32,000 nucleotides of DNA, from assembly GCA_002952755.1 (NCBI GenBank), contig CP025011.1:180001-212000 (forward strand), in the 5' to 3' direction. Shown here one piece after another: positions 583-27,766 of this stretch. The notes beneath the pieces are model-generated. The model had not been told where the DNA came from. It saw nothing but the letters and a program-made list of their open reading frames with translations, and did no database searches. The number at the start of each line of letters is the position of its first letter. Position 1 is the stretch's first letter. The DNA comes from Candidatus Saccharimonadota bacterium (GTDB lineage: Bacteria; Patescibacteriota; Saccharimonadia; Saccharimonadales; UBA4665). A program made the translations under genes and the position numbers.

Positions 583-2028
583 ATGAAAGAGAAAGTAAGA
601 AATCACTGGCTCATTTTGGCCCTACTGGCCTTAGCTCAATTTATGGTGGTGCTTGATGTGTCGATTGTGAATGTCGCCTTGCCAGCCATGCAGCGTACAC
701 TCCATCTCACTCCCACGAACCTCCAATGGGTGATTACCGCATATACGCTTGCTGCCGGAGGCTTCTTGATGCTGGGTGGCCGTGCCGCCGACTTATATGG
801 GCGTCGCCGGATGTTTATGATCGGTATCTTGTGTTTCATCATTGCCAGCCTCGTCGATGGATTGTCGGTAAACGGCGGAATGCTTATCATTCTTCGAGCT
901 GTACAGGGGCTTTCGACTGCCTTTATGTCTCCAGCGGCGCTCTCTATTGTGTTGGTGACATACAAGGAAGGTCATGAACGTAACGTAGCGTTATCGGTCT
1001 GGGGCGCAGTAGCAGCCGGTGGGGCAGCGGTTGGATTATTGCTCGGTGGTTTGCTGACCCAATACCTGAACTGGCGCTGGAATTTCTTCGTAAATGTCCC
1101 CGTTGGATTGCTTGTGATGCTCGGCGTGTATAAGCTTGTTCCGGCACACGAGTCCGAAGAAACGCATAACAGCCTTGATCTGCCTGGCGCACTGACAATT
1201 ACCTCGGGCATGATGCTGATGGTATATGGTTTAGTAAAGGCTCCTAGCTATGGTTGGGCATCGCACACTACCTTGCTGTTCCTGGGCGGCGCAGTGGCAC
1301 TGCTTGCAGCCTTTGTGGTGAACGAACAGCGGGCCAAGCATCCGCTTGTACCACTGTCGATTTTTAAGATTCGTAACGTAACTGGCGCCGATCTCATCCA
1401 GTTGCCTATGACTGCCGCTATGTTCTCGATGTTCTTCTTCACCTCCCTTTATCTGCAGAACGTACTACATTACTCTCCTGTTCGCACAGGCACCAGCTTC
1501 TTGGTCATGCCTGTCGTGCTTGCAGTTGCTGCTACCAACGCACCGCGTTTGGTGAAGCGAGTGGGCTATAAGAGAATTCTGATGACTGCTCCTGTGGTTG
1601 TAGCGGTTGCGCTATTCTGGCTCGGCCATATAACCGTGCAGGGAAACTATCTGCAGCAGGTTCTGCCGCCACTCGTCATAATGGCGATCGGTATGGGTTT
1701 TTCATTCGTGAGCGTTACGATTGCCGCCACCTCGGGCGTACCGGGTAACAAATCTGGCTTGGCTTCGGGCCTGCTTAATACGTCGCAACAAATTGGCGGG
1801 GCACTGGGCCTGGCCATCCTCTCGGGTATCGCGGCTTCTAGCACAACGAAATATCTGACGCATACGGTACATGCCACCCCAGATGCCGCTCTCGTACACG
1901 GCTTCCATCAGGCCTACTTTATAGGCGCAGGTTTTGCCATTGCTGCCGCTGCCATAGCCACGTTTGTTATTAAGCAACAGGCGCCAGGCGCGGAGCCAAT
2001 GCCAGAAATTGCTCCCAGCGCGCATTAG
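583..2028 (+). CDS. MFS transporter, DHA2 (EmrB/QacA-like, 14-TMS) drug:H+ antiporter family
   Basis: 481-aa highly hydrophobic ORF. The N-terminal pattern LDVSIVNVALP...LQWVITAYTLAAGGFLMLGGRAADLYGRRRMF is typical of DHA2 MFS. An SD-like GTGAGGA lies upstream of the ATG. Confidence 0.9.
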   Translation: MKEKVRNHWLILALLALAQFMVVLDVSIVNVALPAMQRTLHLTPTNLQWVITAYTLAAGGFLMLGGRAADLYGRRRMFMIGILCFIIASLVDGLSVNGGMLIILRAVQGLSTAFMSPAALSIVLVTYKEGHERNVALSVWGAVAAGGAAVGLLLGGLLTQYLNWRWNFFVNVPVGLLVMLGVYKLVPAHESEETHNSLDLPGALTITSGMMLMVYGLVKAPSYGWASHTTLLFLGGAVALLAAFVVNEQRAKHPLVPLSIFKIRNVTGADLIQLPMTAAMFSMFFFTSLYLQNVLHYSPVRTGTSFLVMPVVLAVAATNAPRLVKRVGYKRILMTAPVVVAVALFWLGHITVQGNYLQQVLPPLVIMAIGMGFSFVSVTIAATSGVPGNKSGLASGLLNTSQQIGGALGLAILSGIAASSTTKYLTHTVHATPDAALVHGFHQAYFIGAGFAIAAAAIATFVIKQQAPGAEPMPEIAPSAH

Positions 2029-2051
2029 GAATGCCTCCCTATTTGCTAGAA

Positions 2052-2084
2052 ACTGCCTTGCACTGTGCGGCGGCGCAAGGCAGT
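2052..2084 (+). terminator. Hairpin downstream of the MFS gene (possible intrinsic terminator)
   Basis: 10-bp perfect stem ACTGCCTTGC / GCAAGGCAGT with a 13-nt loop, 24 nt after the stop codon. It is not followed by a clear T-tract. Confidence 0.4.
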
Positions 2085-2151
2085 ACTAATAAAATCCATT
2101 AGCAAGCAAGGTCGAGAGTCTTCCTTAATGTAATGAAACTAATGTCTAATT

Positions 2152-2219
2152 CTATAACTATACAAAGAAAAGCCGAACAAATTGATAGCTTTGAGCGGCT
2201 TTTCTTTGTATAGTTATAG
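2152..2219. repeat. 24-bp perfect inverted repeat (AT-rich hairpin, 20-nt loop)
   Basis: CTATAACTATACAAAGAAAAGCCG (2152-2175) is the exact reverse complement of CGGCTTTTCTTTGTATAGTTATAG (2196-2219). Confidence 0.9.
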
Positions 2220-2281
2220 CATAAGCTCTATAGCTTAGTTGCGTGCAAAAAAGAAGCGCTCTCTCATGTGTCCAACATCGA

Positions 2282-2327
2282 CACGAGCACTCAGGCTATG
2301 CCCACCCAAAAAGTCTGAGTGCTCGTG
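2282..2327. repeat. 13-bp perfect inverted repeat / hairpin in a non-coding gap
   Basis: CACGAGCACTCAG (2282-2294) pairs with CTGAGTGCTCGTG (2315-2327), with a 20-nt loop. Confidence 0.8.
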
Positions 2328-2618
2328 CCCTTGCTGCGTCACTGAAGAGCTGCAAATCCTGCGCTATTCTTGGCTCGCCCGTAACCCGATTCCTGCTCGA
2401 ACGTGGCGGCGACGTATGTATGTTCAAATGTGCAAAAATACGAACCTCGAATAATCGCACTTTCCATTATTACCCTCAATTATTAAAAAAGTACTAACTG
2501 TAACATATATTCTTATATGTGGTGACACTCTAGGTGGGAGAGTTACCTCTGGCAGATTAAAAGTTAATGACAATTTAATCATCGAGTTGATAAGATTACC
2601 TACGTAACGGTGCAGCAC

Positions 2619-3290
2619 ATGAAAATCCTGTTAATTGAAGATAATCGTTCCCTAGCTGAGAGTCTCAAACGTCAATTGGGCAAGAATTTTATTGTCGAAA
2701 TGGCCAATAGCGGCGAAGAAGGGCTCCAGTTGGCGCTTGCTGGTGGGCAGGATGTGATTATTTTGGATTTATCCCTGCCAGATATGAGCGGGTACGATAT
2801 TTGTCGGACCATCCGTTTGAGTAATGTACATACGCCGGTCCTTATTTTAACCGGCGCGGACGACATCGCCAGTCGCGTAGCCCTACTCAACGCTGGTGCT
2901 GACGACTACGTCACCAAGCCATTCAGCATTGCCGAATTAAAAGCGCGCCTTGGGGCACTGCTCAGACGTGCGCCTGCCGCGTACAGCACCAATATACTTA
3001 CTATTCAGGATCTGGTTATTGATCCTAACCGTCGTCGGGTCGAACGTAGCGGCATTGCCATCGACCTCAGGCGTAAGGAGTTCGATATTTTAGAGTACCT
3101 CGCCCGTAACCGCGGACGTCCGGTTACGCGAGCGATGATTTTGGACCACGCCTGGGACGGCACCAAAGATACCTGGAACAATACAGTAGATGTGCATATC
3201 AAACATCTACGCGATAAAGTTGATCGTCCGTTTGGCGCGCCGCTCATTAAGACGGCATATGGCATCGGCTACATGATTGATGACATGTAG
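2619..3290 (+). CDS. OmpR/PhoB-family DNA-binding response regulator
   Basis: Receiver domain (MKILLIEDN...VIILDLSLPDMSG...TKPF) plus a winged-helix output domain (LRRKEFDILEYL...VDVHIKHLRDKV...YGIGY). ATG 2619 is preferred over the GTG at 2610 given in the ORF track. Confidence 0.92.
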   Translation: MKILLIEDNRSLAESLKRQLGKNFIVEMANSGEEGLQLALAGGQDVIILDLSLPDMSGYDICRTIRLSNVHTPVLILTGADDIASRVALLNAGADDYVTKPFSIAELKARLGALLRRAPAAYSTNILTIQDLVIDPNRRRVERSGIAIDLRRKEFDILEYLARNRGRPVTRAMILDHAWDGTKDTWNNTVDVHIKHLRDKVDRPFGAPLIKTAYGIGYMIDDM

Positions 3291-3318
3291 ATAATGGGGG
3301 AGAAGGGAGGGGATTCTG

Positions 3319-3426
3319 ATGAGCGATATAATGAAGAGTATTCTGACCGACAAGAACGCACGGGATGTGTCAGTGGTAGAGCAGAAATTGATGACGACTG
3401 CTGAAACTGCAACATCTTGGTTCTAG
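3319..3426 (+). CDS. Candidate small ORF (35 aa) between RR and HK: MSDIMKSILTDKNARDVSVVEQKLMTTAETATSWF
   Basis: Hand translation; it is below the 60-aa cutoff of the ORF track. A strong SD, GGGAGGGG (3305-3312), lies 6 nt upstream of ATG 3319. Same strand as the flanking RR and HK genes. Trp is the penultimate residue. Confidence 0.4.
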   Translation: MSDIMKSILTDKNARDVSVVEQKLMTTAETATSWF

Positions 3427-3451
3427 CGGCTGGCGATATGAGTCCCTCATT

Positions 3452-3583
3452 ATGAGAGCACGTTTTGAAGGGCGAGGTGCCGCATGTGCCAAACTGCCTA
3501 CTTACTATACTGGTATACTAAAAGAGATACCACATAGTAACAAGAGAGCGTTTTGGCCATCGGCACCATTTTTATTCGAGTAA
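3452..3583 (+). CDS. Second candidate small ORF (43 aa): MRARFEGRGAACAKLPTYYTGILKEIPHSNKRAFWPSAPFLFE
   Basis: Hand translation. It ends 7 nt before the HK ATG (3591). No recognisable SD, so it is much weaker than the 3319 ORF. Confidence 0.15.
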   Translation: MRARFEGRGAACAKLPTYYTGILKEIPHSNKRAFWPSAPFLFE

Positions 3584-3590
3584 GTTACGA

Positions 3591-4961
3591 ATGCAATTGA
3601 TGATTCGGCGTATCTATAACATATTTATTGCACCCAAGCAACTTAATGAAGATGTACGGAATCGTGAGGTTGTGCTCAATGCGCTCCTTGCGGCATCGTT
3701 ATTGGGGCTGGGTTTGGCTCTTCTATTGTCGCTATTTAGTGTATTCGTTTTACATCACGAGTATGCGCGGGTAGGACTTATCACTATTGGAGTCGCGCTA
3801 ATTTGTGTGGTGGGCCTGTATGGCTTGTCGCGCAGAGGAGGGCGATTTCGTCTAGCCGCCGCCCTTCTTGTTGCCATCTATAGTCTTATTGCAGCTAACC
3901 TTATTTACCGATCCGGTATTACCATTCCGTCAGGCGAATTATTATTTGGTCTCGTGATTGTGCTCGCCGGCATCTTGCTTGGATCGAGTTATTCATTGTA
4001 TGCGGCTACAGGAGCTGGCATATGGGTAATATCTATTCAGGAGGCGACAAGGCAAGGAGCTATACATCCTGATTTGTCGTGGATTAATGTCCAGCCGTCC
4101 TTGGGGGACGCCGCAGGTTTTTGTTTATTGTTTGCTATCATTGCGCTCGTTTCTTGGTTGTTTAATCGACAAATGGAGCAATCGCTTTTTAGGGCGCAGC
4201 GGGCCGAAAAGGCTTTGATGCACCAAAAAGAGATTTTGGAATCAACGGTAGAAGAACGGACGCGCGAGCTACAAGACGCCCAGCTCGAGCGTATGCAACA
4301 GCTCTACCGTTTTGCTGAGCTTGGTCAACTAAGTACAGCGCTCATGCACGAGTTGGCTAATCATCTGACGACGCTCACGCTCGATATCGAAGGACTCGAA
4401 GGCCAAACACGTTCGCGTATGCTCAGCCGCGCCAAGCGCAGCATTCGCTATATCGATACTATGGTGCTTCGGGTGTGCGATCAGCTGCAAGGGCGGAGTA
4501 ATGTAAAGGCGTTCAGCATTGCAACGGAGCTTGATGAGGTGGTGCAAATTTTAAACCACCGGGCGCAAGAGGCTCATGTTCGCCTGCGCTGGCAAGCGCT
4601 TGGGGATCGAAAGGCGCTGCGCTGCTACGGGGAACCTTTCAAGCTTCGACAATTACTGGCGAATCTTATTTCGAATGGCATCGATTCGTATGAAGGTAGC
4701 TTAGAGGAAAAACGTGAAGTGCTCGTGACTGCCCAAGTGATCGATACTGATGTTGAATTGAAAGTGCACGATTGGGGCAAGGGTATCCCTGCAGAAAAAC
4801 GGGCGCAATTATTCGAGCCGCTGTACAGTACCAAGAAGACGGGAATGGGTATGGGGCTGTTTATCGCCAAGCAGATCGTAGAAGAGCATTTTAAAGGCGT
4901 GATTGCCGTTGACGACACCGAAGATCATACCGTTTTCATGGTCAGGCTCAAAAAGGTGTAG
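3591..4961 (+). CDS. Sensor histidine kinase with a polytopic (about 5-6 TM) N-terminal membrane domain
   Basis: The N-terminal 190 aa form hydrophobic helices joined by very short loops. These are followed by a coiled-coil linker, an H-box (LSTALMHELANHL) and HATPase_c motifs (LISNGIDS...HDWGKGIP...GMGMGL). Confidence 0.9.
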   Translation: MQLMIRRIYNIFIAPKQLNEDVRNREVVLNALLAASLLGLGLALLLSLFSVFVLHHEYARVGLITIGVALICVVGLYGLSRRGGRFRLAAALLVAIYSLIAANLIYRSGITIPSGELLFGLVIVLAGILLGSSYSLYAATGAGIWVISIQEATRQGAIHPDLSWINVQPSLGDAAGFCLLFAIIALVSWLFNRQMEQSLFRAQRAEKALMHQKEILESTVEERTRELQDAQLERMQQLYRFAELGQLSTALMHELANHLTTLTLDIEGLEGQTRSRMLSRAKRSIRYIDTMVLRVCDQLQGRSNVKAFSIATELDEVVQILNHRAQEAHVRLRWQALGDRKALRCYGEPFKLRQLLANLISNGIDSYEGSLEEKREVLVTAQVIDTDVELKVHDWGKGIPAEKRAQLFEPLYSTKKTGMGMGLFIAKQIVEEHFKGVIAVDDTEDHTVFMVRLKKV

Positions 4962-4964
4962 GCT

Positions 4965-6911
4965 TTGGGGCAGGCGCAGGACGAGATCGTAAAAAAGGCA
5001 GTAGCTTTTTTAAGCAATGTCCAACAAGCGGATGGCAGATTCCTGAGTTATTCCAGCTCAAAAGAGCGGCCATTTATTGCCGAAAAAACATACTGCACGA
5101 CGTTCGGCCCTTCGCTCATACTGGCGGCCTTAGCTGGGGCGTCCAAAGCGTCCGCCATTTGCGCCAGACTCGCCTTATGGCTTGCCGATCAACGTAGCGA
5201 CGGCTGGTCGTTTAATTATTGGGCGCACGCTGCGCCAGAGCGCCAGACGCTACCTTATCCAGACGATCTGGATGATACCTTTTGCGCGCTTATCGCGTTG
5301 CACAGGCAGGAGCCGGACCGTACTAATGAAGCTGTGTTAGGCTGCGTGGTACGCCTACTGGTAGCGGCAGAGAGCAGGGTTGGCGGGCCGTATGAAACAT
5401 GGCTTGTACCCAAAGAAGCCAAAAGGGTGTGGCACGATGTGGACCTAGCAGTTAATAGCAATATTGCCTATTTTTTGGGATTAGTCGGCACCAGACTACC
5501 TCAGGTAGACGCCTTATTGCAGACGGCGGTTATCTCTGGTATGTTCGCTTCTCCTTACTATCCCTCTGAGTACTCAATTCTATACTATGTATCGCGGGCA
5601 TACGCCGGACCAGACAAAACGCGACTCATTGCTCATATTTTAGCTAAGAGACAGAATGGACATTGGCCCTCGGTGTTAGCTACCGCGCTCTCGATAACTT
5701 CGTTGCACGCCTTAGGTAGTGTTGACGCACAAAGTGAGGCACGACAGTATTTGTGCGATATGCAATTACCCGATGGATCCTGGCCGGCCGAGGCATTTTG
5801 CCTGGATCCTTCTCGAAAAGGTCAGGCATACTTTAGCGGTTCGTCAGCCCTTACGACTGCTTTGGTTCTAGAAGCGCTTACACACAGTACAACACCGGAG
5901 CCTGCCAGGGTGTCGGCTGTTGAAGCTATGCCGGATACTCATGAGGCACAACTGATAGAGCGTATCGCTGTTGCCGCAGAACAGAGCTGTGCTGCATTCG
6001 ATCCAGAGTTGCGCTATGCCACCATCCGACACCTGCGCGCAATACAAAAGAGCAAGCATAGCCGCGAAATCACTCTATTACCGTATTTATTTGCCCGATC
6101 ACTTACGGAACCGCCATCATTTTCTGATGATGTATTAGTACGACTAGGGCTCGCCAATCTGTATGGATGGCTCGCCTATACAATCTTTGATGATTTTTTG
6201 GATGATGAAGGTCGTCCTCAAGATGTGCCAGTTGCTTGTGCTGCGCTCCGTCAGTCGCTGCATTTATTTGAAGATGCGCTGCCGGATGCCTCGTTTCGTA
6301 AGTATGCTCGACAAACATTCGACCATATTGATGCTGCCAATGCCTGGGAGGCCGCTCATTGCCGGTTCCAAGTCGATACTCAACACATCACCATTGCCAA
6401 ACTCCCTAGTTATCACCGCTCGAACCACCTCTATCAGCGTTCGCTTGGTCATACACTAACACCGCTGGCAGTGTTGGTTGCCCAAGGGTATTCGCTCGAC
6501 GAACCTGCGGTTATTGCCTGCAAGCAGGCCTTGCAGCATTATCTAGCTGCCCGTCAGCTTAACGACGACCTGCATGACTGGGAAGAGGATGTATCCCGCG
6601 GGCATAGTAGCTATGTAGTAACGGCAATTCTGGCTAATTTACATATACCCCTTGGAAAACAGCCTCTAAAGTCGCTCGTTGCCCGGATGCGCCGTCAGTT
6701 TTGGCACCATACGCTGCTTGCAGTTTGTGAGGATGCCGATCGTCACATCCGTTTAGCTCGTCGCTATCTGAAGCAAAGTAATTTACTGCAAGATGAGAAT
6801 AGTGTTACTGGACTGCTTGACGGGCTTGACGCCAGTGTCGCCCGCACTCGATCCGAGCAAAGCAAGGCAGAGGCATTTCTGGCTGCCTATCAGGGAGAAA
6901 ATAAGTCTTAG
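4965..6911 (+). CDS. Two-domain terpenoid-enzyme-like protein: N-terminal cyclase/prenyltransferase-like alpha/alpha toroid plus C-terminal isoprenoid-synthase-like helical domain
   Basis: TTG start 3 nt after the HK stop, with AAGGTG upstream. N-terminal half: four QW-like repeats (KAVAFLSNVQQADGRF, ARLALWLADQRSDGW, IAHILAKRQNGHW, ARQYLCDMQLPDGSW) and DDLDDT (nt 5262-5279), which resembles the class II cyclase DxDDTA motif. C-terminal half: FDDFLDDE (nt 6189-6209) and QLNDDLHDWEED (nt 6561-6590), i.e. a DDxxD motif plus a second Asp-rich / NSE-like motif 125 aa apart. Confidence 0.6.
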   Translation: MGQAQDEIVKKAVAFLSNVQQADGRFLSYSSSKERPFIAEKTYCTTFGPSLILAALAGASKASAICARLALWLADQRSDGWSFNYWAHAAPERQTLPYPDDLDDTFCALIALHRQEPDRTNEAVLGCVVRLLVAAESRVGGPYETWLVPKEAKRVWHDVDLAVNSNIAYFLGLVGTRLPQVDALLQTAVISGMFASPYYPSEYSILYYVSRAYAGPDKTRLIAHILAKRQNGHWPSVLATALSITSLHALGSVDAQSEARQYLCDMQLPDGSWPAEAFCLDPSRKGQAYFSGSSALTTALVLEALTHSTTPEPARVSAVEAMPDTHEAQLIERIAVAAEQSCAAFDPELRYATIRHLRAIQKSKHSREITLLPYLFARSLTEPPSFSDDVLVRLGLANLYGWLAYTIFDDFLDDEGRPQDVPVACAALRQSLHLFEDALPDASFRKYARQTFDHIDAANAWEAAHCRFQVDTQHITIAKLPSYHRSNHLYQRSLGHTLTPLAVLVAQGYSLDEPAVIACKQALQHYLAARQLNDDLHDWEEDVSRGHSSYVVTAILANLHIPLGKQPLKSLVARMRRQFWHHTLLAVCEDADRHIRLARRYLKQSNLLQDENSVTGLLDGLDASVARTRSEQSKAEAFLAAYQGENKS

Positions 6912-8389
6912 GAATGTACGATCACTGGCGTGCCGATCGGCGCCCATGCGTATAGCCAGGCACTATCGTCTACCGGAATACCGACACAGCCGTGCGAGCT
7001 ATTGACCAAGCCAAAATAACTGGCCGGCCGCCAGTAGTTACCGTGAATTGCATAGTCGGCATAGAAGTAATTGACGTACGGAACATGCGGCTGAAAATAA
7101 CGCGAGCCGTCGACATTCTCGCCAAACATATCCTGGCTGACATATTTGGCATAGATAGCGAAGCGACCGAGGATGGTGGGCGTGGCTGGTGCGCCGGCGG
7201 TGACAGAGTAGTTGCGAACCAGCTCACCTTGGTCATAGGCGTATAACTGTTTGGTAGCCACGTTCACTTCAATCCATTTGCCAGTCGTTGGTGCGGTAAT
7301 GGTGCGGAAAGGGGTTGCCGTTGTAGTGAGCGCGAGATCCTGGCTGGTGTGATTGAGTAAGTTACTGCTCAGTGTGTCTGCTGTATTCTGGGTATTACTA
7401 ACTTGCAAGCCCTGCTGTCCTTCAGACAGAATCTCGCCTGATACATCTAAAATCTGCGGCTTGGCAGGCTGTGTATATGACGACGCAAGGGCGTCGAAAT
7501 ATCTTCGCACTTGGTTGTTATCTATCCCGATGGCCACGCCGGCTGCATTGTCGTTAGTGAGTGTCAGCCATCCACCAATGTCCACCGCGCTGGGTGTAAT
7601 TACCTGGCCGGCGATATGTATAGTAATTTTTTGTCGTAGTATCGCTGTCAACTTTGCTTGGACGGGCAGGAGCTTTTGCATGGTAATCGTGGGCGCCAGA
7701 GCGATGGGTTGCATGGTAACCGGCTTAGTTTGCATCTGTTGGGCTGCCTCCAGAATAGTCTGGTCCGCATCAGCTGGACCGTATGCTTTGCCAGGCATCT
7801 CGGCATCCAGAGAAGCTACTCCATTGGTGATGTGAAGAGACGCGTCGTGTGGAGGTACGGTCACAATGGTCGCGTCACGACTGGTGAATTGGCTAAGGGT
7901 GCTGCTGTGTATGACTCCCAATATAGTTATATGCACCGGCTGCCACCATGCGAAGCGATGGCGCCAGCTGTGCTGATTTTTGTGGAGCGCCTGCAAGCTA
8001 CGTGCAATATCGGGCTGCAGGCCGATTGCCGCTAGCGGAAACGCTTTCGTCGAATGGTTTGGGTATGCGATGGACAAGCGGTAGTTAGCACTAGCCTGCT
8101 GGACATCTCTTTGGAGTGCCGTATTGGTTATATGTCCGGAGAATATTTGGTCGCCAATAGCAATGCGAGTATAGAGTAGGTTGCCCGCAACCCAGGTTAG
8201 CCCAACGATACTCAAGGTAATGCCCGTAGCTATAGCGGCTGGTCGCCATCGATGCGAGTGGCCATGGCTCCCAGGCGTCACAGAGGGATTCTTTTCACGC
8301 CCACTTCCGGTTGATTCCGATGGCGAATCATTAGCAACAACTATCTTAGCTGAGCCTCGGGTGCTTTTATCCTGTTTTTTCTTTTTCAA
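6908..8389 (-). CDS. Membrane-anchored L,D-transpeptidase (YkuD domain)
   Basis: N-terminal Lys-rich tail and one TM helix. C-terminal YkuD-like catalytic region (AIHGNYW...NSSHGCVGIPVDDSAWLY). Its stop codon overlaps the stop of the convergent gene (TTAG). Confidence 0.8.
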   Translation of the reverse strand: MKKKKQDKSTRGSAKIVVANDSPSESTGSGREKNPSVTPGSHGHSHRWRPAAIATGITLSIVGLTWVAGNLLYTRIAIGDQIFSGHITNTALQRDVQQASANYRLSIAYPNHSTKAFPLAAIGLQPDIARSLQALHKNQHSWRHRFAWWQPVHITILGVIHSSTLSQFTSRDATIVTVPPHDASLHITNGVASLDAEMPGKAYGPADADQTILEAAQQMQTKPVTMQPIALAPTITMQKLLPVQAKLTAILRQKITIHIAGQVITPSAVDIGGWLTLTNDNAAGVAIGIDNNQVRRYFDALASSYTQPAKPQILDVSGEILSEGQQGLQVSNTQNTADTLSSNLLNHTSQDLALTTTATPFRTITAPTTGKWIEVNVATKQLYAYDQGELVRNYSVTAGAPATPTILGRFAIYAKYVSQDMFGENVDGSRYFQPHVPYVNYFYADYAIHGNYWRPASYFGLVNSSHGCVGIPVDDSAWLYAWAPIGTPVIVHS

Positions 8390-8989: not shown

Positions 8990-10390
8990 TCACTCCTGCA
9001 CATGCATTGAATCATAGAGCGTAAGCAAAATGCTGGCGAGTTGGCCTCGGATAAGTTGCTGTGGCTTAACGAGCTTCGGGGCGGCTATCTGCTCGATCTT
9101 CGTTGCATTATCGTGAATGATGGCATGTAGCTCATCCGCTACGGCTCTGTTTTTAGTGTGCACAGCGAGACGATGTGTCATGCCAATAGCCACACTTCCA
9201 TAGAAAAAGCTTGTTAGTGCAGTGTTTATCAGCACAGCGCGGGACACCTCTCTTTTACTCATCGCCTCCCTTGACTTGAGAGGTAGTATGCTTTCCCATG
9301 TCTTTGCTAGGGGCAGTGCTTGATCTGCGATTAATTGATGTGACGGGTCGAGCGATGAGAGATCGAGTTTATCCCAATAGTCTAACGTGCGTCTTATGTT
9401 GTATAGACTTTCTCTCAGCATATCACTGAGTGTTTTTCTTGACTCACCTGGCATATGATCGACTGCGCTGATCTGCGGGACGGCGAAGTGTGCGGCTTCA
9501 AGCATAACGCCCCTTACCCGTTTGTTAGCCTCCTCGCCGATTTTTTGCGCGTAGCCGATTGACTGGCGTCCCGGCGGGCTCATAGCGGAGGCTTTACTCT
9601 CTCCATACTGCTCGGCATTGTAGTCGTACCATTCTTCAAATGTAGGCAGTTGGTATACACCTTTTGTAAGTTCACGCGCCATTGGCAAGTCGCCCGTGCC
9701 CGAGAGTGGCAGGTCAGGGGCTACTATCAGCAATGAGTTTTTGAGCGACCGCGCGAGAGCGAACGATGTCCCGCTTACGTACGCAGCCTGCCCACCTATG
9801 GAGGCGTTGTGTCCAGAGAAGACTACGTCCGGAAGTCGGTGAGCAATAATATCCATGCTCGCTCGTGTCGCGGGAAGCGGATGGTTCTGAGCCGCTTCCC
9901 TATACTCTACGGGATAAGTGTGATCTACCACTTGGTCACTACGGAATGTACCTAAGAGGCAATCCTCGATTGAGGGATTAGGTAAACCAGTCCAGGTATT
10001 CAATTGGGAAGTGGCAGGATGAGCGTCGAAGAAGCTAATCGCACTGCAGCCGAGTTGTTGCAATAACCGTGTGGTCGTTGCAACGCGAAGTAATTCTTGG
10101 GCTGTATTGACGGCCACCTTCTCATTTTCGTCAACATTCATTTTTACATATAAAACGCCATCACCCTTGGGGTCAGGAAGTTCTATAGTGCAGGATTCAA
10201 AATTTTTTGTGCTACCGTCAAGATCGGTATATGTATGATCAGTAGGCTCGACAGAGAGCACAGCGCCCTCTTCTCCTGGATCTTGACCCTTGAACCACTC
10301 TGAAAATCCTCCTAACTCGTAGTGAGGGTAGTCAGGAACACTCATCACTGCCTCCGCAATGCGGGGAATATCCGCTCCATGATTTGTCAT
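8990..10390 (-). CDS. Hypothetical protein (466 aa), no recognisable family
   Basis: Long uninterrupted ORF with protein-like composition. No signal peptide or TM helix, and no motif I can assign. Confidence 0.6.
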   Translation of the reverse strand: MTNHGADIPRIAEAVMSVPDYPHYELGGFSEWFKGQDPGEEGAVLSVEPTDHTYTDLDGSTKNFESCTIELPDPKGDGVLYVKMNVDENEKVAVNTAQELLRVATTTRLLQQLGCSAISFFDAHPATSQLNTWTGLPNPSIEDCLLGTFRSDQVVDHTYPVEYREAAQNHPLPATRASMDIIAHRLPDVVFSGHNASIGGQAAYVSGTSFALARSLKNSLLIVAPDLPLSGTGDLPMARELTKGVYQLPTFEEWYDYNAEQYGESKASAMSPPGRQSIGYAQKIGEEANKRVRGVMLEAAHFAVPQISAVDHMPGESRKTLSDMLRESLYNIRRTLDYWDKLDLSSLDPSHQLIADQALPLAKTWESILPLKSREAMSKREVSRAVLINTALTSFFYGSVAIGMTHRLAVHTKNRAVADELHAIIHDNATKIEQIAAPKLVKPQQLIRGQLASILLTLYDSMHVQE

Positions 10391-10579
10391 GCGGGCACTG
10401 TAGCAATTTTCTTGTTTAGTAACAAGCTGGCTAAGAAAGAGGGGGGGTTCGGCAGGAGGTATAGCAGGCTTTTTGATTTACTCAAGGGCAAGGCAACCGC
10501 TGCTATAACGAATCACGATTTTTACCGAAGCTGTTCGGTAATTGGGGAGGATGGTCGAGCCATTTGCTATACTCGACAT

Positions 10580-11592
<1,013 letters not shown>

Positions 11593-13758: not shown

Positions 13759-15474
13759 ATGACACAAAAAGCGCGGACTCGATTCTGGGATACGCTTACG
13801 CATAGCCGTTTATCGCCAGACACTGGGCCCTACGGCCAAGCTTATGTCATCAATATGTACAGCTTGCTGGCTTTTTTGTCGCTTACGATTTTTGGCATAT
13901 TACATCTGACCGCCGATCATACACCGCGGATTGGCTATTTAGAGCTCGGCTGCGCTGCAGTTATGTTGCTGAATATCGGGTTGCTATATGCAAGTCAGGA
14001 TCTGGTAGTAGGCCGCACCATTTTATTGTCTACTATTATGGCCGGGTTAGTTGTGATGTTAGGGACGGGTGGCACCCAGGGTACGGGTATTTTTTGGTTT
14101 TTTGTATTTCCGGTGGGTGCCTTTTTTGTAGCGGGGAAGAAACAGGGTATGCGCTGGGTGATAGCCCTCTTTTTGGTAGTGCTCGCATTACTTGGGTTGG
14201 CGCAAGCCGATGTGGTCAATTTGTTTTATTCATTTATAACTATCAGGCAGTTGCTGGTGAGCCTAGCAGTGGTTGCAGCCGGGATATATGTATATGAGCG
14301 TTCGAGGGAGCAGCTCGAGCAACAGACACGCACCGACGAGCACGATTTACGCGAAGAGAAGGTTCTTGCTGGAACGATCTTAGAGAATATCGATGAGGGC
14401 GTCGTAGCTATAAACAAGCAAGGGCGGGTAATACTAATGAATCAGCCGGCCGAGCAAATGCTCGGTTGGAGCCGCGACGATTTGATGGGCAAGAAGTTCG
14501 TTGAGATGGTGCCATTGATTGATCATAAAGGTAAGCGGGTGAAATCAACCGACCGTCCGATACATCGGGCGTTGGAAGGCCCTATCGGTAATTTGTCGCT
14601 AACCTATGTGCGTAAGGATGGTAGCAAATTCCCGGTGGTTATGTCTGGCAGGTCAATTATGGTAGATGGTAAAGTGCAGGGCGCGATTGGTACGTTTCGC
14701 GATGTGACCGAGGAGCGGAATATTGACCGGGCCAAGACTGAATTTGTGACGCTAGCCTCACACCAGTTGCGGACGCCGCTATCGGCTATCGCCTGGTTTA
14801 GCGAGATGTTGTTGAATGGTGATGTGGGTAAACTGAGCGACGCCCAGCGCGAGCCGATCGAGCAGATTTATCACAGTAATCAACGTTCGGCAGCGATCGT
14901 TGACGCCATGCTGACCGTCTCCAACGTTGAGCTTGACAAGGTGACGGTGAGCCCTGAGGTTGTTGATCTCCCCGCACTCTGCCATAAGGTGCTGAATGAA
15001 GTGGGAAGTGCATTGCTGAGTGAAAAAGAGCTGCACATTCGTGAAGAGTACGCCCCTGACCTGTCGAACCTAAAGCTCGACCCTGCTCTTACGAAAACAA
15101 TGCTTCAAATTATTATCTCCAACGCGCTAAAATATACGCCAAACGGTGGTTCTGTAACGATTAAGATTCTAAAAAGCGCCGAAAAGCTTTCGCTTTCCAG
15201 TCGGGGTAGTGTGCGGATAGATGTGACCGACACTGGATATGGCGTCCCAAAAGCTGAACACAAGAAAATCTTTGAAAAACTCTTCAGGGGTACTAATATA
15301 AGATCAAAAGATACTGATGGGACAGGGTTGGGATTGTACATTGTGAAATCACTTTTGGAACAAGCGGGCGGGGTCATTCGATTTACATCTGAAGAAGATA
15401 AGGGCAGTACTTTTTCTATTGTGCTGCCCCTGGAAGGCATGAAGCGCAAAGGGCCGGGTACGGCTCATGTTTAG
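13759..15474 (+). CDS. PAS-domain sensor histidine kinase (membrane-bound)
   Basis: About 5 N-terminal TM helices, a PAS region (ILENIDEGVVAINKQGRVILMNQPAEQMLGW...), an H-box (LASHQLRTPLSAI) and HATPase_c motifs (ISNALKYTP...DTGYGVP...GTGLGLYIV). Confidence 0.92.
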   Translation: MTQKARTRFWDTLTHSRLSPDTGPYGQAYVINMYSLLAFLSLTIFGILHLTADHTPRIGYLELGCAAVMLLNIGLLYASQDLVVGRTILLSTIMAGLVVMLGTGGTQGTGIFWFFVFPVGAFFVAGKKQGMRWVIALFLVVLALLGLAQADVVNLFYSFITIRQLLVSLAVVAAGIYVYERSREQLEQQTRTDEHDLREEKVLAGTILENIDEGVVAINKQGRVILMNQPAEQMLGWSRDDLMGKKFVEMVPLIDHKGKRVKSTDRPIHRALEGPIGNLSLTYVRKDGSKFPVVMSGRSIMVDGKVQGAIGTFRDVTEERNIDRAKTEFVTLASHQLRTPLSAIAWFSEMLLNGDVGKLSDAQREPIEQIYHSNQRSAAIVDAMLTVSNVELDKVTVSPEVVDLPALCHKVLNEVGSALLSEKELHIREEYAPDLSNLKLDPALTKTMLQIIISNALKYTPNGGSVTIKILKSAEKLSLSSRGSVRIDVTDTGYGVPKAEHKKIFEKLFRGTNIRSKDTDGTGLGLYIVKSLLEQAGGVIRFTSEEDKGSTFSIVLPLEGMKRKGPGTAHV

Positions 15475-16954
15475 AAAAATGTCGCTGCAAGCCAAGATGA
15501 TATTCGCGTTTCTATCGTTAACGCTGCTCGTTGATGCCGGCAGCTACTATTTAATCCTCGTTTTGGATCACAGCAATAACCTCACATTGACAGCAGACCA
15601 TCTGACAGTATCGATAGCTACGTTTGCGGTTTTGGTCTCAGCTTTTGCGGTAGCGCTAGGGACATTTCTGGCAATTTGGCTTGGACGATCCATCTCAAAG
15701 CTGAAGGGTGGCGCCGAGCGGATCGCGGATGGAGACTTTTCGCGTCCAATTCCAGTGAATTCCGAGGATGATTTTGGCAAATTAGCACTGGCTTTTAACG
15801 CAATGGCGGAGCGTCACAAGGATGCCTATCGCCGCCTGGCTGTCGAGAGACAACGCGACGAGGCAATACTTCAGAGCATGAGTGAAGGTTTGCTAGCGGT
15901 AGACGAAAACGGAACAGTGGTGTTGGCCAACGATGTGGCGGTCGCCTTACTTGACCTCGAGAGTCAAGAAGCAGCAATTGGCAAAGACAGCAAAACTATT
16001 CTCAAACTCTATTCACAAAATGTGCAGGAAACCAAACCATTACCGCTCAAAGAACAGCCTGTGCATAGTGCGCTCTCTACCGGGCGTGCCGTCAGCGATA
16101 TATTCGCATTCCATAAAGTTAGCGGCGAGAAATTTCTGCTGAATGTGAGCGCCAATCCGATCCGCCTCGACGAAAAAACAATCGGAGCTATTTTAGTAGT
16201 CCGCGATGTGACGAAAGAGCGGGAAATAGACCGTATGAAAACCGAGTTCATCTCGCTCGCCTCACACCAATTGCGGACGCCGCTATCGGCCATTAAATGG
16301 TTTAGCGAGATGCTGCTCTCTGGCGACGCCGGTAAGCTCAAAGGCGATCAGGTTGATTTTGCACAGAATATTGCCGACTCTACTCAGCGTATGATCGAGT
16401 TGGTCAATTCATTGCTCAATATTTCACGTATCGAATCGGGCCGGATTATGGTAACGCCACAGCCGACCGACCTGAAGGAACTTGTGTCGGGTATTGTGAG
16501 CGACCTCAAGGGCAAAACTGAGCAGAAAAAGCAGTCGCTAGTGATTAGTGTCCATCAGGATTTGCCAAAGATTAAGCTCGATCCGCGCCTGATTGGCCAG
16601 GTGTACCTCAATCTATTGACCAATGCCATTAAATACACTCCCAAAGGCGGCGAGATCTCGGTATTTATCTCCCGTAAGGGCGACCAAGTAATTTCGCAGG
16701 TAACAGACAATGGGTACGGCATACCAAAAGATCAGCAGGACCGCGTGTTCCAGAAGTTCTTCCGTGCAGCTAATGCAGTAAAGGTGGAGACAGACGGCAC
16801 GGGCCTCGGGTTGTATCTTATTAAGGCGGTTATCGAATCGTCGGGCGGTAAGATATGGTTTGAGAGTGAGGAGGGGAAGGGAACGACATTTTGGTTTAGT
16901 ATTCCGATGAGTGGCATGAAGGCCAAGAAAGGTGAGGTGACGCTCGATGCATAG
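15467..16954 (+). CDS. HAMP/PAS sensor histidine kinase, paralog of the upstream HK
   Basis: Its start overlaps the upstream stop by 8 nt. Two TM helices, a HAMP-like region (IADGDFSRPIPVNSEDDFGKLALAFNAMAE), a PAS domain, the same H-box (LASHQLRTPLSAI) and HATPase_c motifs. Confidence 0.92.
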   Translation: MFRKMSLQAKMIFAFLSLTLLVDAGSYYLILVLDHSNNLTLTADHLTVSIATFAVLVSAFAVALGTFLAIWLGRSISKLKGGAERIADGDFSRPIPVNSEDDFGKLALAFNAMAERHKDAYRRLAVERQRDEAILQSMSEGLLAVDENGTVVLANDVAVALLDLESQEAAIGKDSKTILKLYSQNVQETKPLPLKEQPVHSALSTGRAVSDIFAFHKVSGEKFLLNVSANPIRLDEKTIGAILVVRDVTKEREIDRMKTEFISLASHQLRTPLSAIKWFSEMLLSGDAGKLKGDQVDFAQNIADSTQRMIELVNSLLNISRIESGRIMVTPQPTDLKELVSGIVSDLKGKTEQKKQSLVISVHQDLPKIKLDPRLIGQVYLNLLTNAIKYTPKGGEISVFISRKGDQVISQVTDNGYGIPKDQQDRVFQKFFRAANAVKVETDGTGLGLYLIKAVIESSGGKIWFESEEGKGTTFWFSIPMSGMKAKKGEVTLDA

Positions 16955-25004: not shown

Positions 25005-25808
25005 ATGCTAAGTTTTCGCATTACACCGCAGAAACGCGGACTCGGGTGGATACCGGATGTACCCGACCAACGTGACAAAATTTTCCGGCCTTTGCCCGAA
25101 GCGCTCAAACTCACTAGATTGGCCGCAGTTACCAGGATAGACCTGCGCGACCAGTGTCCGCCAGTGTACGATCAAGGTCAGCTGGGAAGTTGTACGGCCA
25201 ACGCGCTTGCTGGCGCCTTCGATTTTGACCGCGGCAAACAGGGGCACTCATTCATGACCCCGAGCCGTTTATTTGTCTATTGGAATTCGCGCTACATGGA
25301 GGGCACGATAGATACCGACGCCGGTGCCACGCTGCGCGATGGCATCAAAAGCTTGAATGTATCTGGGGTACCCCCAGAGATTGACTGGCCGTACATCATT
25401 GACAAGTTTCGTGATAAACCATCCGAGAAGTCTTACCAGGACGCCCAAGAGAGCCAGACCCTAGAGTATCGTCGTATCGTCACGCCGCACGATGATCCGA
25501 GCCACGATATGCTAGCCTGTTTAAACGAAGGATATCCTTTTGTAACTGGTATTGCCGTGTACGAGAGTTTTGAAACTCCGGATACCGAGAGAACGGGAAT
25601 TATTCCTATGCCGGAGCCAGAAGAGCGATTGCTCGGCGGGCACGCCGTGCTAGTTGTGGGATACGATGTAGGGAAAAAGCATTACATTGTCCGCAATTCA
25701 TGGGGCTCAGACTGGGGCGATGAAGGCCACTTCTACCTGCCGTTTGAATACTTAACAAGTAAAGGGTTGGCCAGCGACATGTGGATGATCAAAACCGTGG
25801 AGGTATAG
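25005..25808 (+). CDS. Papain-family (C1) cysteine peptidase, no signal peptide
   Basis: Catalytic motifs QGQLGSCTANA (Cys), GGHAVLVVGYD (His) and VRNSWGSDWGDEGHF (Asn). Strong SD GGGGGAGGG upstream. Confidence 0.88.
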   Translation: MLSFRITPQKRGLGWIPDVPDQRDKIFRPLPEALKLTRLAAVTRIDLRDQCPPVYDQGQLGSCTANALAGAFDFDRGKQGHSFMTPSRLFVYWNSRYMEGTIDTDAGATLRDGIKSLNVSGVPPEIDWPYIIDKFRDKPSEKSYQDAQESQTLEYRRIVTPHDDPSHDMLACLNEGYPFVTGIAVYESFETPDTERTGIIPMPEPEERLLGGHAVLVVGYDVGKKHYIVRNSWGSDWGDEGHFYLPFEYLTSKGLASDMWMIKTVEV

Positions 25809-27103: not shown

Positions 27104-27766
27104 TTAATGTGCGCTAATCAGTTCACTGACGACAATAGTGCGTTGGTTATAACTGTGAGTGGCATTGTCGAAATCACCGGCACAGGTGATGAGATTGAGC
27201 TGGCTCTTGATGCTGTTATCGCGAGCGAATAGTGCAGCGCCAGCTACCTCATTTCTTACTTCGATGATTTGTTTGATACGGAAGAGCTCTTTTGTTCCAT
27301 TGCCTAACTCAATCGTAAAAGCGTCGCCTGCAGAAAGCTTACCGAGATGTAGAAATATACCTGGTCCGTGCAGGCCGTTTACATGGCCATCGATAATACT
27401 TAAGCCGGCCTGGCCGGGACTTAAACTATTTACATACCAGCCTGCCAGATTGACATTGTTCGGGGCGGCGACTTGGTTGTGCTGATCAACGCCCATCTTT
27501 TGAATGTACCCCTCGGTTTGTATGGTCGGTAATGTGATGTATTTTGGTTCGGTCGCTCCGGCTGTCGATGCGTAGGCGCCTTTGTTTGGCTGTACTTCGC
27601 TCGGTGAGGGGCTGGAGTACGTAATAACATCCTTGGCACTGGTTAGCTGGACGGCAGGTTTCGTTTGCTGCTTGCGGGGACTCGGGGCATAGAAAACGTG
27701 GCCGATGAGTAGCGCCAAGGCAAGCAGTGCAGCTCCCTGTTTAAGCTGCCTGAAGCTGAATCTCAT
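27104..27766 (-). CDS. Sortase-family transpeptidase (membrane-anchored)
   Basis: N-terminal TM helix, catalytic His (SIIDGHVNG), the Cys motif NLITCAG and a downstream Arg (NQRTIVV). Confidence 0.85.
   Translation of the reverse strand: MRFSFRQLKQGAALLALALLIGHVFYAPSPRKQQTKPAVQLTSAKDVITYSSPSPSEVQPNKGAYASTAGATEPKYITLPTIQTEGYIQKMGVDQHNQVAAPNNVNLAGWYVNSLSPGQAGLSIIDGHVNGLHGPGIFLHLGKLSAGDAFTIELGNGTKELFRIKQIIEVRNEVAGAALFARDNSIKSQLNLITCAGDFDNATHSYNQRTIVVSELISAH

Follow-up and report, generated by a model that had tools for sequence, protein, structure and literature searches.

What does a bacterium of the candidate phyla radiation (CPR, or Patescibacteria) do with a single protein that joins the acid motif of a class II terpene cyclase to the two aspartate-rich motifs of an isoprenoid synthase, and that is encoded almost in continuity with a histidine kinase? 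The protein in question lies at positions 4965-6911 (+) of a 32,000-nucleotide stretch of a Candidatus Saccharimonadota genome (assembly GCA_002952755.1, contig CP025011.1, positions 180,001 to 212,000 of the forward strand), referred to here as the window. It is 648 amino acids (aa) long, is read from a TTG start 3 nt past the stop codon of the kinase gene (TAG, 4959-4961) and has AAGGTG ahead of its start. A preliminary description of the window had noted the fusion and considered its translational coupling to a kinase unusual. We find that the coupling is tight across many loci and that enzyme and kinase belong to a conserved operon of four genes in the order regulator-peptide-kinase-enzyme. 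That description had missed the peptide gene, a 35-aa Trp-containing open reading frame (ORF) at 3319-3426; together with the regulator at 2610-3290 it completes a ComQXPA-like operon, which explains why the enzyme is coupled to a kinase. On balance we favor the view that the enzyme is a bifunctional maturase of a ribosomally made peptide, prenylating its Trp and cyclizing the prenyl group, and that the product is sensed by the adjacent kinase.

A class II cyclase barrel fused to an isoprenoid-synthase fold

Conservation was assessed in two samples: the best 120 of 794 homologues returned by a database search (44-53% identity; coverage 96-100%, with a single exception at 85%), which supply the residue counts given below, and a scan of one genome per species, in which motifs were checked in 81 related loci down to 33% identity. 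The homologues are nearly all unnamed or annotated 'hypothetical', and the named sources are mostly metagenome-assembled genomes of Candidatus Saccharimonadales or Patescibacteria. An AlphaFold2 model of the full enzyme reached a predicted local distance difference test (pLDDT) score of 95.3 and a predicted template-modeling score (pTM) of 0.88. Its only low-confidence stretch is the linker between the domains (aa 313-324; 5901-5936, +), where pLDDT falls below 50 at aa 315-317 and averages 54 over the block 311-320. The three Asp-rich motifs stand where the preliminary description had placed them (DDLDDT at aa 100-105, FDDFLDDE at aa 408-415 and QLNDDLHDWEED at aa 531-542), and its suggestion that their conservation be examined turned out in their favor: all three are present in all 81 related loci, and they are near-invariant in more than 100 homologues, which argues that they did not arise by chance. 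The consensus of the 120 homologues reads PYPDDLDDTFCAL at 97-109, YDDFLD at 408-413 and QLxDDxHDWxxD at 531-542. A profile of the C-terminal half matched 1,711 clusters of 50% identity at E<=1e-3, of which 1,126 reached E<=1e-30; in full-length members of the best 150 such clusters, the C-domain is C-terminal and follows an N-terminal extension of ~320 aa. The two-domain fusion is the rule for this enzyme family. Models and conservation agree with the earlier view of a barrel with DxDD(T) fused to an all-helical domain of isoprenoid-synthase fold with two Asp-rich motifs.

The N-domain (aa 1-312; 4965-5900, +) is a single-barrel class II terpene cyclase beta-domain, and the cyclase domain of the bacterial drimenol synthase AsDMS is its closest relative. 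The family profile matched AsDMS (9mhs) among PDB sequences at E 3.3e-15 over aa 27-310, squalene-hopene cyclase (SHC) at 5e-7 and the fungal enzyme AstC at 2e-4, and Foldseek of the enzyme model returned AsDMS (2.3e-10), the 345-aa myxobacterial single-barrel cyclases 8pak/8paj (4e-10) and SHC (4e-5). The single class II-type alpha/alpha barrel read earlier from the sequence is thus seen both in the AlphaFold2 model and in its structural matches. Sensitive profile searches, which the preliminary description had named as a way to refute its reading, split the protein, placing the N-terminal half with class II cyclases and finding no family match for the C-terminal half. In Pfam and NCBIfam the N-terminal half has weak squalene-hopene cyclase matches alone (SQHop_cyclase_C, 4e-6), and weak matches to complement TED domains also appeared.

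The catalytic residues of the barrel can be read against those of AsDMS. DDLDDT (aa 100-105; 5262-5279, +), the class II general-acid motif, is conserved at D101 (120/120), D103 (119/120), D104 (116/120) and T105 (117/120), and Y198 and Y199 (5556-5561, +) are each found in 120/120, in a segment where PYYP of the window protein aligns with RYYP of AsDMS. D101, D103 and Y199 align to AsDMS D331, D333 and Y427; that D103 corresponds to D333 is clear because in 9m7d, the chain of the D333N mutant, the residue facing D103 is Asn. In AsDMS, D333 donates the proton and is activated by Y427, and mutating D331, D333 or Y427 abolishes activity (PMC12365925). The acid motif of the window protein looks functional, and cyclization activity is predicted. 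All four QW-like repeats of the preliminary description are visible (Q20..G24.F26, Q76..G80W81, Q229.G231.W233 and Q267..G271.W273); three are conserved among homologues, but the one at Q229 is not.

The C-domain (aa 325-648; 5937-6911, +) has the all-helical fold of the trans-IDS (trans-isoprenyl diphosphate synthase) enzymes in a model with pLDDT 94.7 and pTM 0.91, and is predicted to be a peptide-Trp prenyltransferase. Its best 50 Foldseek matches all belong to the trans-IDS superfamily, led by a hexaprenyl diphosphate synthase (3aqb_B, 8e-6, TM-score 0.65/0.67); among the others are a geranylgeranyl diphosphate synthase (5jfq), farnesyl diphosphate synthases, MoeN5 and the indole prenyltransferase Ord1 (9v4i, 1.8e-3). 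By sequence, the domain alone matched nothing in Pfam or NCBIfam at E up to 10, PF00348 included, and its profile gave chance-level matches alone among PDB sequences. An hhalign comparison of the C-domain alignment with 19 genuine polyprenyl synthases from neighboring genes gave a probability of 0.9%; since this is not significant, the relation to trans-IDS enzymes is structural only.

Both Asp-rich motifs of this domain are strongly conserved. The first, DDFLD (aa 409-413; 6189-6203, +), is a DDxxD resembling FARM (the first motif rich in aspartate) of prenyl diphosphate synthases, with D409 in 120/120, D410 in 108/120 and D413 in 119/120; by analogy with ComQ and StheQ, it would be the Mg2+/diphosphate site. 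In the second, QLNDDLHDWEED (6555-6590, +), the predicted indole-acceptor site, Q531, D534, D535, D538, W539 and D542 are each found in 120/120, so that the conserved pattern of the domain is DDxxD...Q-x-x-D-D-x-H-D-W-x-x-D. Just ahead of their second Asp-rich motif, ComQ, PalQ, Ord1 and the P domain of ChrPC all have a Gln, which is thought to bind the indole N-H together with the first Asp of that motif (PMC13290415). Q531, three residues ahead of D534, agrees with the Gln as that review describes it.

Two readings of the C-terminal half had been offered in the preliminary description. The one with FARM and SARM (the second motif rich in aspartate) is upheld at the level of fold, which is prenyl-diphosphate-synthase-like (ComQ/IspA-like), whereas the class I terpene synthase reading, with DDxxD plus NSE, fails on both the fold ranking and the motif: no class I cyclase is among the best 50 Foldseek matches, and the NSE positions are not conserved (N533 is Asn in 57% and E541 is Glu in 25% of homologues, with His at position 537 in 94%). 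The C-domain shares its fold, its DDxxD, the upstream Gln and an adjacent Trp precursor with the trans-IDS-like Trp prenyltransferases and falls outside PF00348/IPR033965 by sequence; we infer that it works like these enzymes from outside the ComQ sequence family.

A Trp-containing peptide in a two-component operon

The first gene of the operon encodes an OmpR-type response regulator with receiver and winged-helix domains (2610-3290, +; Pfam Response_reg 4e-26, Trans_reg_C 1e-22). It is followed by the precursor peptide gene (3319-3426, +; 35 codons, MSDIMKSILTDKNARDVSVVEQKLMTTAETATSWF), with a Shine-Dalgarno-like GGGAGGGG (3305-3312, +) 6 nt ahead of its ATG, and then by the sensor histidine kinase gene (3591-4961, +; H-box MHELANHL, Pfam HATPase_c 7e-18) and the enzyme gene. 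The N-terminus of the kinase is polytopic, with ~5-6 transmembrane helices within aa 36-191 and no large external loop by hydropathy, and its best NCBIfam matches are AtoS/NtrB-like. In 68 loci a homologue of the regulator is encoded upstream in the same orientation, and in 78 a homologue of the kinase is encoded directly upstream of the enzyme, with a kinase-enzyme gap of -4 to +6 nt in many of them, so that tight coupling is kept. No neighbors of the enzyme other than regulator, kinase and peptide are consistently conserved.

The peptide consists of a conserved leader, a variable segment and a Trp second from the C-terminus (...TSWF). Nine of the 83 loci end upstream before the peptide region, which leaves 74 that can be evaluated. 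In 72 loci an iterated hidden Markov model, run on 13,583 ORFs, placed the peptide between regulator and kinase (E 1e-9 to 6e-23), and two more peptides, in the loci numbered L068 and L056, bring the count to 74/74. M1, L9, R15 and W34 are invariant, and the spacing from Met to Trp is nearly fixed. Exactly one Trp is present in 65/69 distinct peptides, 1-7 residues from the end, and Pro precedes it in 58/69; related precursors are 34-45 aa long. The locus of a 52%-identical homologue has an identical layout, with a homologous 35-aa ORF that ends in ...TPWS. Pairwise differences between the peptide genes run at 0.45, 0.37 and 0.70 for first, second and third codon positions, a pattern that indicates a translated gene under purifying selection. 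No curated family covers the precursor, and database entries give these peptides no name.

The genes of the operon diverge at graded rates. Mean identity across related loci is 71% for the regulator, 57% for the kinase domain, 52% for the enzyme N-domain, 47% for the kinase sensor, 44% for the enzyme C-domain and 20% for the segment of the peptide ahead of the Trp. Between the window and locus L003, the regulators are 88% and the leaders 94% identical and the enzymes ~55%, and the segments around the Trp are unrelated. This gradient resembles the pherotype polymorphism of comQXP.

The precursors are of two types. Those of Saccharimonadia (L003-L036) are acidic or neutral and amphipathic, and those of L037-L082 (Microgenomates, Parcubacteria and other CPR) combine an N-region rich in Lys with a hydrophobic stretch which, lying just ahead of PW, resembles a Sec signal peptide; this hints at a different route of export or processing. 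In L068 (5652-5927, -), peptide and kinase are divergent from the enzyme, as is the peptide in L074 (1944-2051, -), and the enzymes of both loci carry DDWDDT as the class II motif and QLGDDxxDW as the second Asp-rich motif of the C-domain. The peptide frame of L056 (4380-4500; ...KKLLKKVFINKVIRDTMAISAFVVIIMETTLVWS*) has no ATG, GTG or TTG ahead of the conserved leader; its start codon may be non-canonical (CTG or ATA), or the assembly may be in error here.

In 19 loci a polyprenyl synthase gene (PF00348, 1e-52) lies directly downstream of the enzyme on the same strand; L008 (7927-8970), L014, L019, L021, L024, L027, L028, L030 and L033 are among them. Its product has DDxxG rather than DDxxD as its second motif and Ala at position -5 of the first, features that suggest a product of C20 or longer, and the linked synthase is a plausible dedicated supply of the prenyl donor. 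The window locus has no polyprenyl synthase, and a converging L,D-transpeptidase gene takes that place.

Between the peptide and kinase genes lies a long hairpin (3476-3567) followed by AUUUUUAUU (whole element 3476-3576, +), which looks like a terminator or an attenuator. The RNA of 3420-3595 folds at -58.4 kcal/mol (z = -3.99), and 0/200 shuffled sequences were as stable. A hairpin in this position, after the peptide gene, could raise the ratio of peptide to enzyme transcript. A crude scan found a comparable hairpin and T-run in 25/68 loci, and as the element is not conserved we left it out of the definition of the system. Consensus scans of 2000-7300 for promoters and terminators found nothing above shuffled expectation.

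A proposed route from precursor to signal

How might these parts work together? In the reading that we favor, the enzyme would bind the conserved leader of the precursor (M1...L9...R15), with the Trp at a fixed distance, at about residue 34. The C-domain would ionize a prenyl diphosphate, probably of C15-C20, at its DDxxD and alkylate the indole of the Trp, positioned by Q531 and D534. In the class II N-domain, D103, helped by D101 and Y199, would then protonate the distal double bond of the attached chain and so start its cyclization, giving a peptide that carries a polycyclic terpenoid. After processing and export of the lipophilic peptide, the neighboring kinase would perceive it through its polytopic membrane domain and phosphorylate the regulator, as in ComQXPA or agr-type autoinduction.

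This proposal builds on direct observations, namely the gene set and its conservation, the folds, and the conservation of catalytic residues and peptide. Speaking for it are a peptide in 74/74 evaluable loci with an invariant Trp, a trans-IDS fold with the diagnostic Gln, cyclase residues that match those of AsDMS, and a sensor embedded in the membrane.

Several points weigh against it. Every chemical step, the donor chain length and the signaling role are inferred, and so is the order of prenylation and cyclization, because AsDMS, to which the N-domain is closest among solved structures, takes farnesyl diphosphate (FPP), a free diphosphate, as its substrate and not a peptide-bound chain. The assignment of the C-domain rests on its predicted fold and short motifs; no sequence similarity to ComQ, polyprenyl synthases or a curated family was detectable, and the structural match to Ord1 (1.8e-3) is no better than those to ordinary chain-elongating synthases. 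The full DDxxD of the second motif, where ComQ has a pseudo-SARM NDxxx, could mean a different second substrate. In the comparison of neighbors across loci, no protease or exporter is conserved around the operon. Lastly, the OmpR-type regulator and the different gene order make the analogy with ComQXPA a functional one, not one of orthology.

The peptide could also be the substrate of the enzyme and yet mature into an effector, such as an antimicrobial, a host-directed lipopeptide or a membrane-anchored factor, with the two-component system answering some other cue. We regard this as unlikely, while giving it real weight. Characterized RiPPs (peptides made on ribosomes and modified after translation) with cyclic isoprenoids stem from natural-product-type clusters, and in one such case the modification is reported to support anti-cyanobacterial activity. 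The episymbiotic life of CPR bacteria makes host-directed molecules plausible on general grounds, and the signal-peptide-like precursors of CPR other than Saccharimonadia would fit a secreted or anchored product. An effector does not, however, account well for the position of the peptide gene between regulator and kinase in nearly all loci, nor for a kinase sensor that consists only of transmembrane helices, without an extracytoplasmic domain, as in kinases that sense peptides or lipids. Genes for immunity, transport or further tailoring are not conserved around the operon, and in divergence the kinase sensor and peptide core together outpace the regulator, which again favors a signal over an effector.

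It is improbable, in our judgment, that the protein is a stand-alone bifunctional terpene synthase that makes a small-molecule or membrane terpenoid from free isoprenoid diphosphates and that the small ORF is an unrelated regulatory or membrane peptide. In this scheme, which is close to the reading of the preliminary description, a prenyl diphosphate built or ionized by the C-domain would be cyclized by the class II domain. The idea draws on the kinship of the N-domain with AsDMS and AstC, which cyclize free FPP, and on a C-domain that keeps both DDxxD-type motifs and has chain-elongating synthases as its best structural matches. The polyprenyl synthase adjacent in 19 loci would also suit isoprenoid metabolism of this kind, but having a dedicated, separate polyprenyl synthase encoded alongside speaks against the fused C-domain being itself a chain-builder, and the C-domain shows no significant resemblance to those neighboring synthases (0.9% in hhalign, PF00348 unmatched). 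A free substrate would moreover leave unexplained both the invariant Gln ahead of the second motif, a feature of Trp prenyltransferases, and the co-inheritance of a peptide whose invariant Trp keeps a fixed spacing.

That toroid and helical bundle form a non-catalytic or unrelated module for binding or scaffolding, for example an accessory sensor of the kinase whose Asp motifs bind metal or ligand, is very improbable. In its favor, the C-domain belongs to no curated family, and many non-terpenoid proteins contain alpha/alpha toroids, the weak complement TED matches being of this sort. Against it stand the invariance of the exact catalytic triad of a characterized class II cyclase, two Asp-rich motifs that do not vary over the range of 33-100% identity, and the polyprenyl synthase linked in 19 loci.

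Relation to known systems

ComQ/ComX is the paradigm of a Trp-prenylated pheromone, and the window operon resembles Bacillus ComQXPA in combining an isoprenoid-fold enzyme, a short Trp precursor, a polytopic kinase and a regulator in one operon, as well as in having an enzyme, a peptide and a sensor that diverge fast when set against the regulator. Its gene order is regulator-peptide-kinase-enzyme, as opposed to comQ-X-P-A, and its regulator is OmpR-type and its kinase AtoS/NtrB-like, whereas ComA is a NarL/LuxR-type regulator. The enzyme further differs from ComQ in having no detectable ComQ/PF00348 similarity, a full second DDxxD and an extra class II cyclase domain. As read from these sequences, the comparison points to independent assembly rather than orthology.

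Outside the comQXPA systems, PalQ/PalX/PalP of Paenibacillus alvei and StheQ/StheX of Sphaerobacter thermophilus each offer a remote ComQ-like Trp prenyltransferase beside a Trp-ended precursor; the Pal cluster also holds a kinase, and StheX bears its modified Trp at the penultimate residue, where the Trp of the window peptide stands. PalQ and StheQ are single-domain enzymes without a cyclase, PalX is an NHLP-type precursor and StheX is 69 aa long. PalQ also requires that Trp be the very last residue, whereas in the present peptides it is followed by 1-7 residues.

The statement in the preliminary description that no compact bacterial protein was recognized as combining both motif sets does not hold, as ChrPC and NctPC, fused prenyltransferase-cyclase peptide maturases, were reported in 2024 (Hubrich et al. 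2024, Chem 10:3224, as presented in the review PMC13290415). In the account of that review, the trans-IDS-like P domain of ChrPC puts a C10-C20 group on a peptide Trp and the C domain cyclizes it (PMC13290415). Like ChrPC, the window protein unites a predicted prenyltransferase domain and a class II cyclase domain in one polypeptide, with a ribosomal precursor as its proposed substrate and the precursor gene nearby. The cyclase domain of the window protein is N-terminal; by solved structures it is closest to the HAD-fused beta-domains of AsDMS and AstC, whereas the cyclase domains of ChrPC and NctPC are described as MstE-like. The window-type system is also tied to a two-component system, is found in CPR and has a ComX-like precursor of 34-45 aa; the known substrates of the ChrPC type are said to be proteusin, Nif11 or lasso precursors.

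Among cyclases, the HAD-TC-beta drimenol/drimenyl synthases (AsDMS, 9MHS/9M7D, and fungal AstC) are the best matches of the N-domain in both sequence and structure. They share with it a single beta-barrel, the D-x-D-(D/T)-T motif, an acid-activating Tyr and the fusion of the barrel to a second catalytic domain, which acts at the opposite end of the substrate; in their case, however, the partner is an N-terminal HAD phosphatase and the substrate free FPP, and their identity to the window protein is ~20%. MstE is a beta-only class II cyclase that cyclizes a prenyl chain which an aromatic head group already carries, and this is the chemistry proposed here, but it is a stand-alone enzyme with DxD rather than DxDD and lies outside the best 50 Foldseek matches of the enzyme model. 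Plant terpene synthases of beta-alpha and gamma-beta-alpha architecture likewise place an N-terminal class II-type barrel before a C-terminal helical domain of isoprenoid fold. The helical domain of the window protein has the trans-IDS fold and not the class I cyclase fold, its barrel keeps the catalytic DxDD, and the two groups have no sequence relationship.

Distribution across the CPR and significance

The operon was found in 278 species representatives, with carriers in Saccharimonadia, Microgenomates, Parcubacteria, Doudnabacteria and other CPR/Patescibacteria. These bacteria make up a large share of bacterial diversity, have tiny genomes and are mostly episymbiotic, and we know of no self-produced signal described for them. 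Tentatively, and with rather less confidence than we place in the enzyme's role, we propose that CPR bacteria widely carry an independently assembled ComQXPA-like signaling system whose pheromone would be a short peptide with a polycyclic terpenoid on a near-C-terminal Trp, made by the fusion enzyme and sensed by the dedicated kinase.

If this is true, the CPR would gain its first described peptide-pheromone or quorum-sensing system and cyclic-terpene-modified peptides their first signaling role. The operon is a testable candidate for density sensing or coordinated host attachment in these bacteria. The enzymes would form a large, sequence-distinct clade of predicted fused class II cyclase/Trp-prenyltransferase maturases, one that has no Pfam or NCBIfam model. 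Intact motif sets and a very short proposed substrate make them of interest for the lipidation of peptides and for learning how a single beta-barrel cyclase acts on a tethered chain.

A full-text literature search, whose coverage excludes most subscription papers, found no paper that combines ComQXPA with Patescibacteria and no fused maturase linked to a two-component system or to CPR. Among the Saccharibacteria and Patescibacteria papers that the full-text search returned on ComX, quorum-sensing, prenyltransferase, cyclase or RiPP, none describes such a system, and a broad survey of class II cyclases, monodomain enzymes included, does not mention CPR. What thus appears to be undescribed is a short substrate of ComX-like type, a link to a two-component system that is obligatory, and a distribution that spans the CPR; the architecture of the enzyme has the 2024 precedent.

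Some carrier records are titled Dormiibacterota, Methylomirabilota, Gammaproteobacteria, Vitreimonas or Sulfotelmatobacter (L012, L045, L048, L050, L052, L054, L060, L075 and L077). L048 ('Gammaproteobacteria') and L049 ('Microgenomates') have an identical peptide and identical match scores for regulator, kinase and enzyme, and the bins with non-CPR labels are probably mislabeled or contaminated. The sole plasmid match by tblastn, L083 (Nostoc sp. C052 plasmid pC052_D, 3796-7452), was weak (E 2e-3, 21% identity) and was judged irrelevant; it is a 1,218-aa protein annotated 'tetratricopeptide repeat protein', aligned to barrel aa 72-273 and encoded among glycosyltransferase genes.

Other genes of the window

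Just upstream of the operon lies the gene for an efflux pump of the DHA2 family of the major facilitator superfamily (MFS; 583-2028, +), which recurs in ~4 close relatives. Downstream of the operon, the window encodes a papain-like cysteine protease (25005-25808, +) and a sortase (27104-27766, -). Pump, protease and sortase are conceivable candidates for export or processing of the peptide; none is conserved beside the operon elsewhere.

Two further histidine kinase genes stand back to back at 13759-15474 and 15467-16954 (+) with an 8-nt overlap, their products having the architectures MASE6-PAS-HisKA-HATPase and HAMP-PAS-HisKA-HATPase, and no response regulator was identified beside this pair. 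At 10322-11017 and 10900-11592 (+), overlapping ORFs in different frames encode the two halves of one NAD-dependent epimerase/dehydratase (profile positions 1-131 and 137-240); judging from these frames, the gene is frameshifted, as a pseudogene or through a sequencing error.

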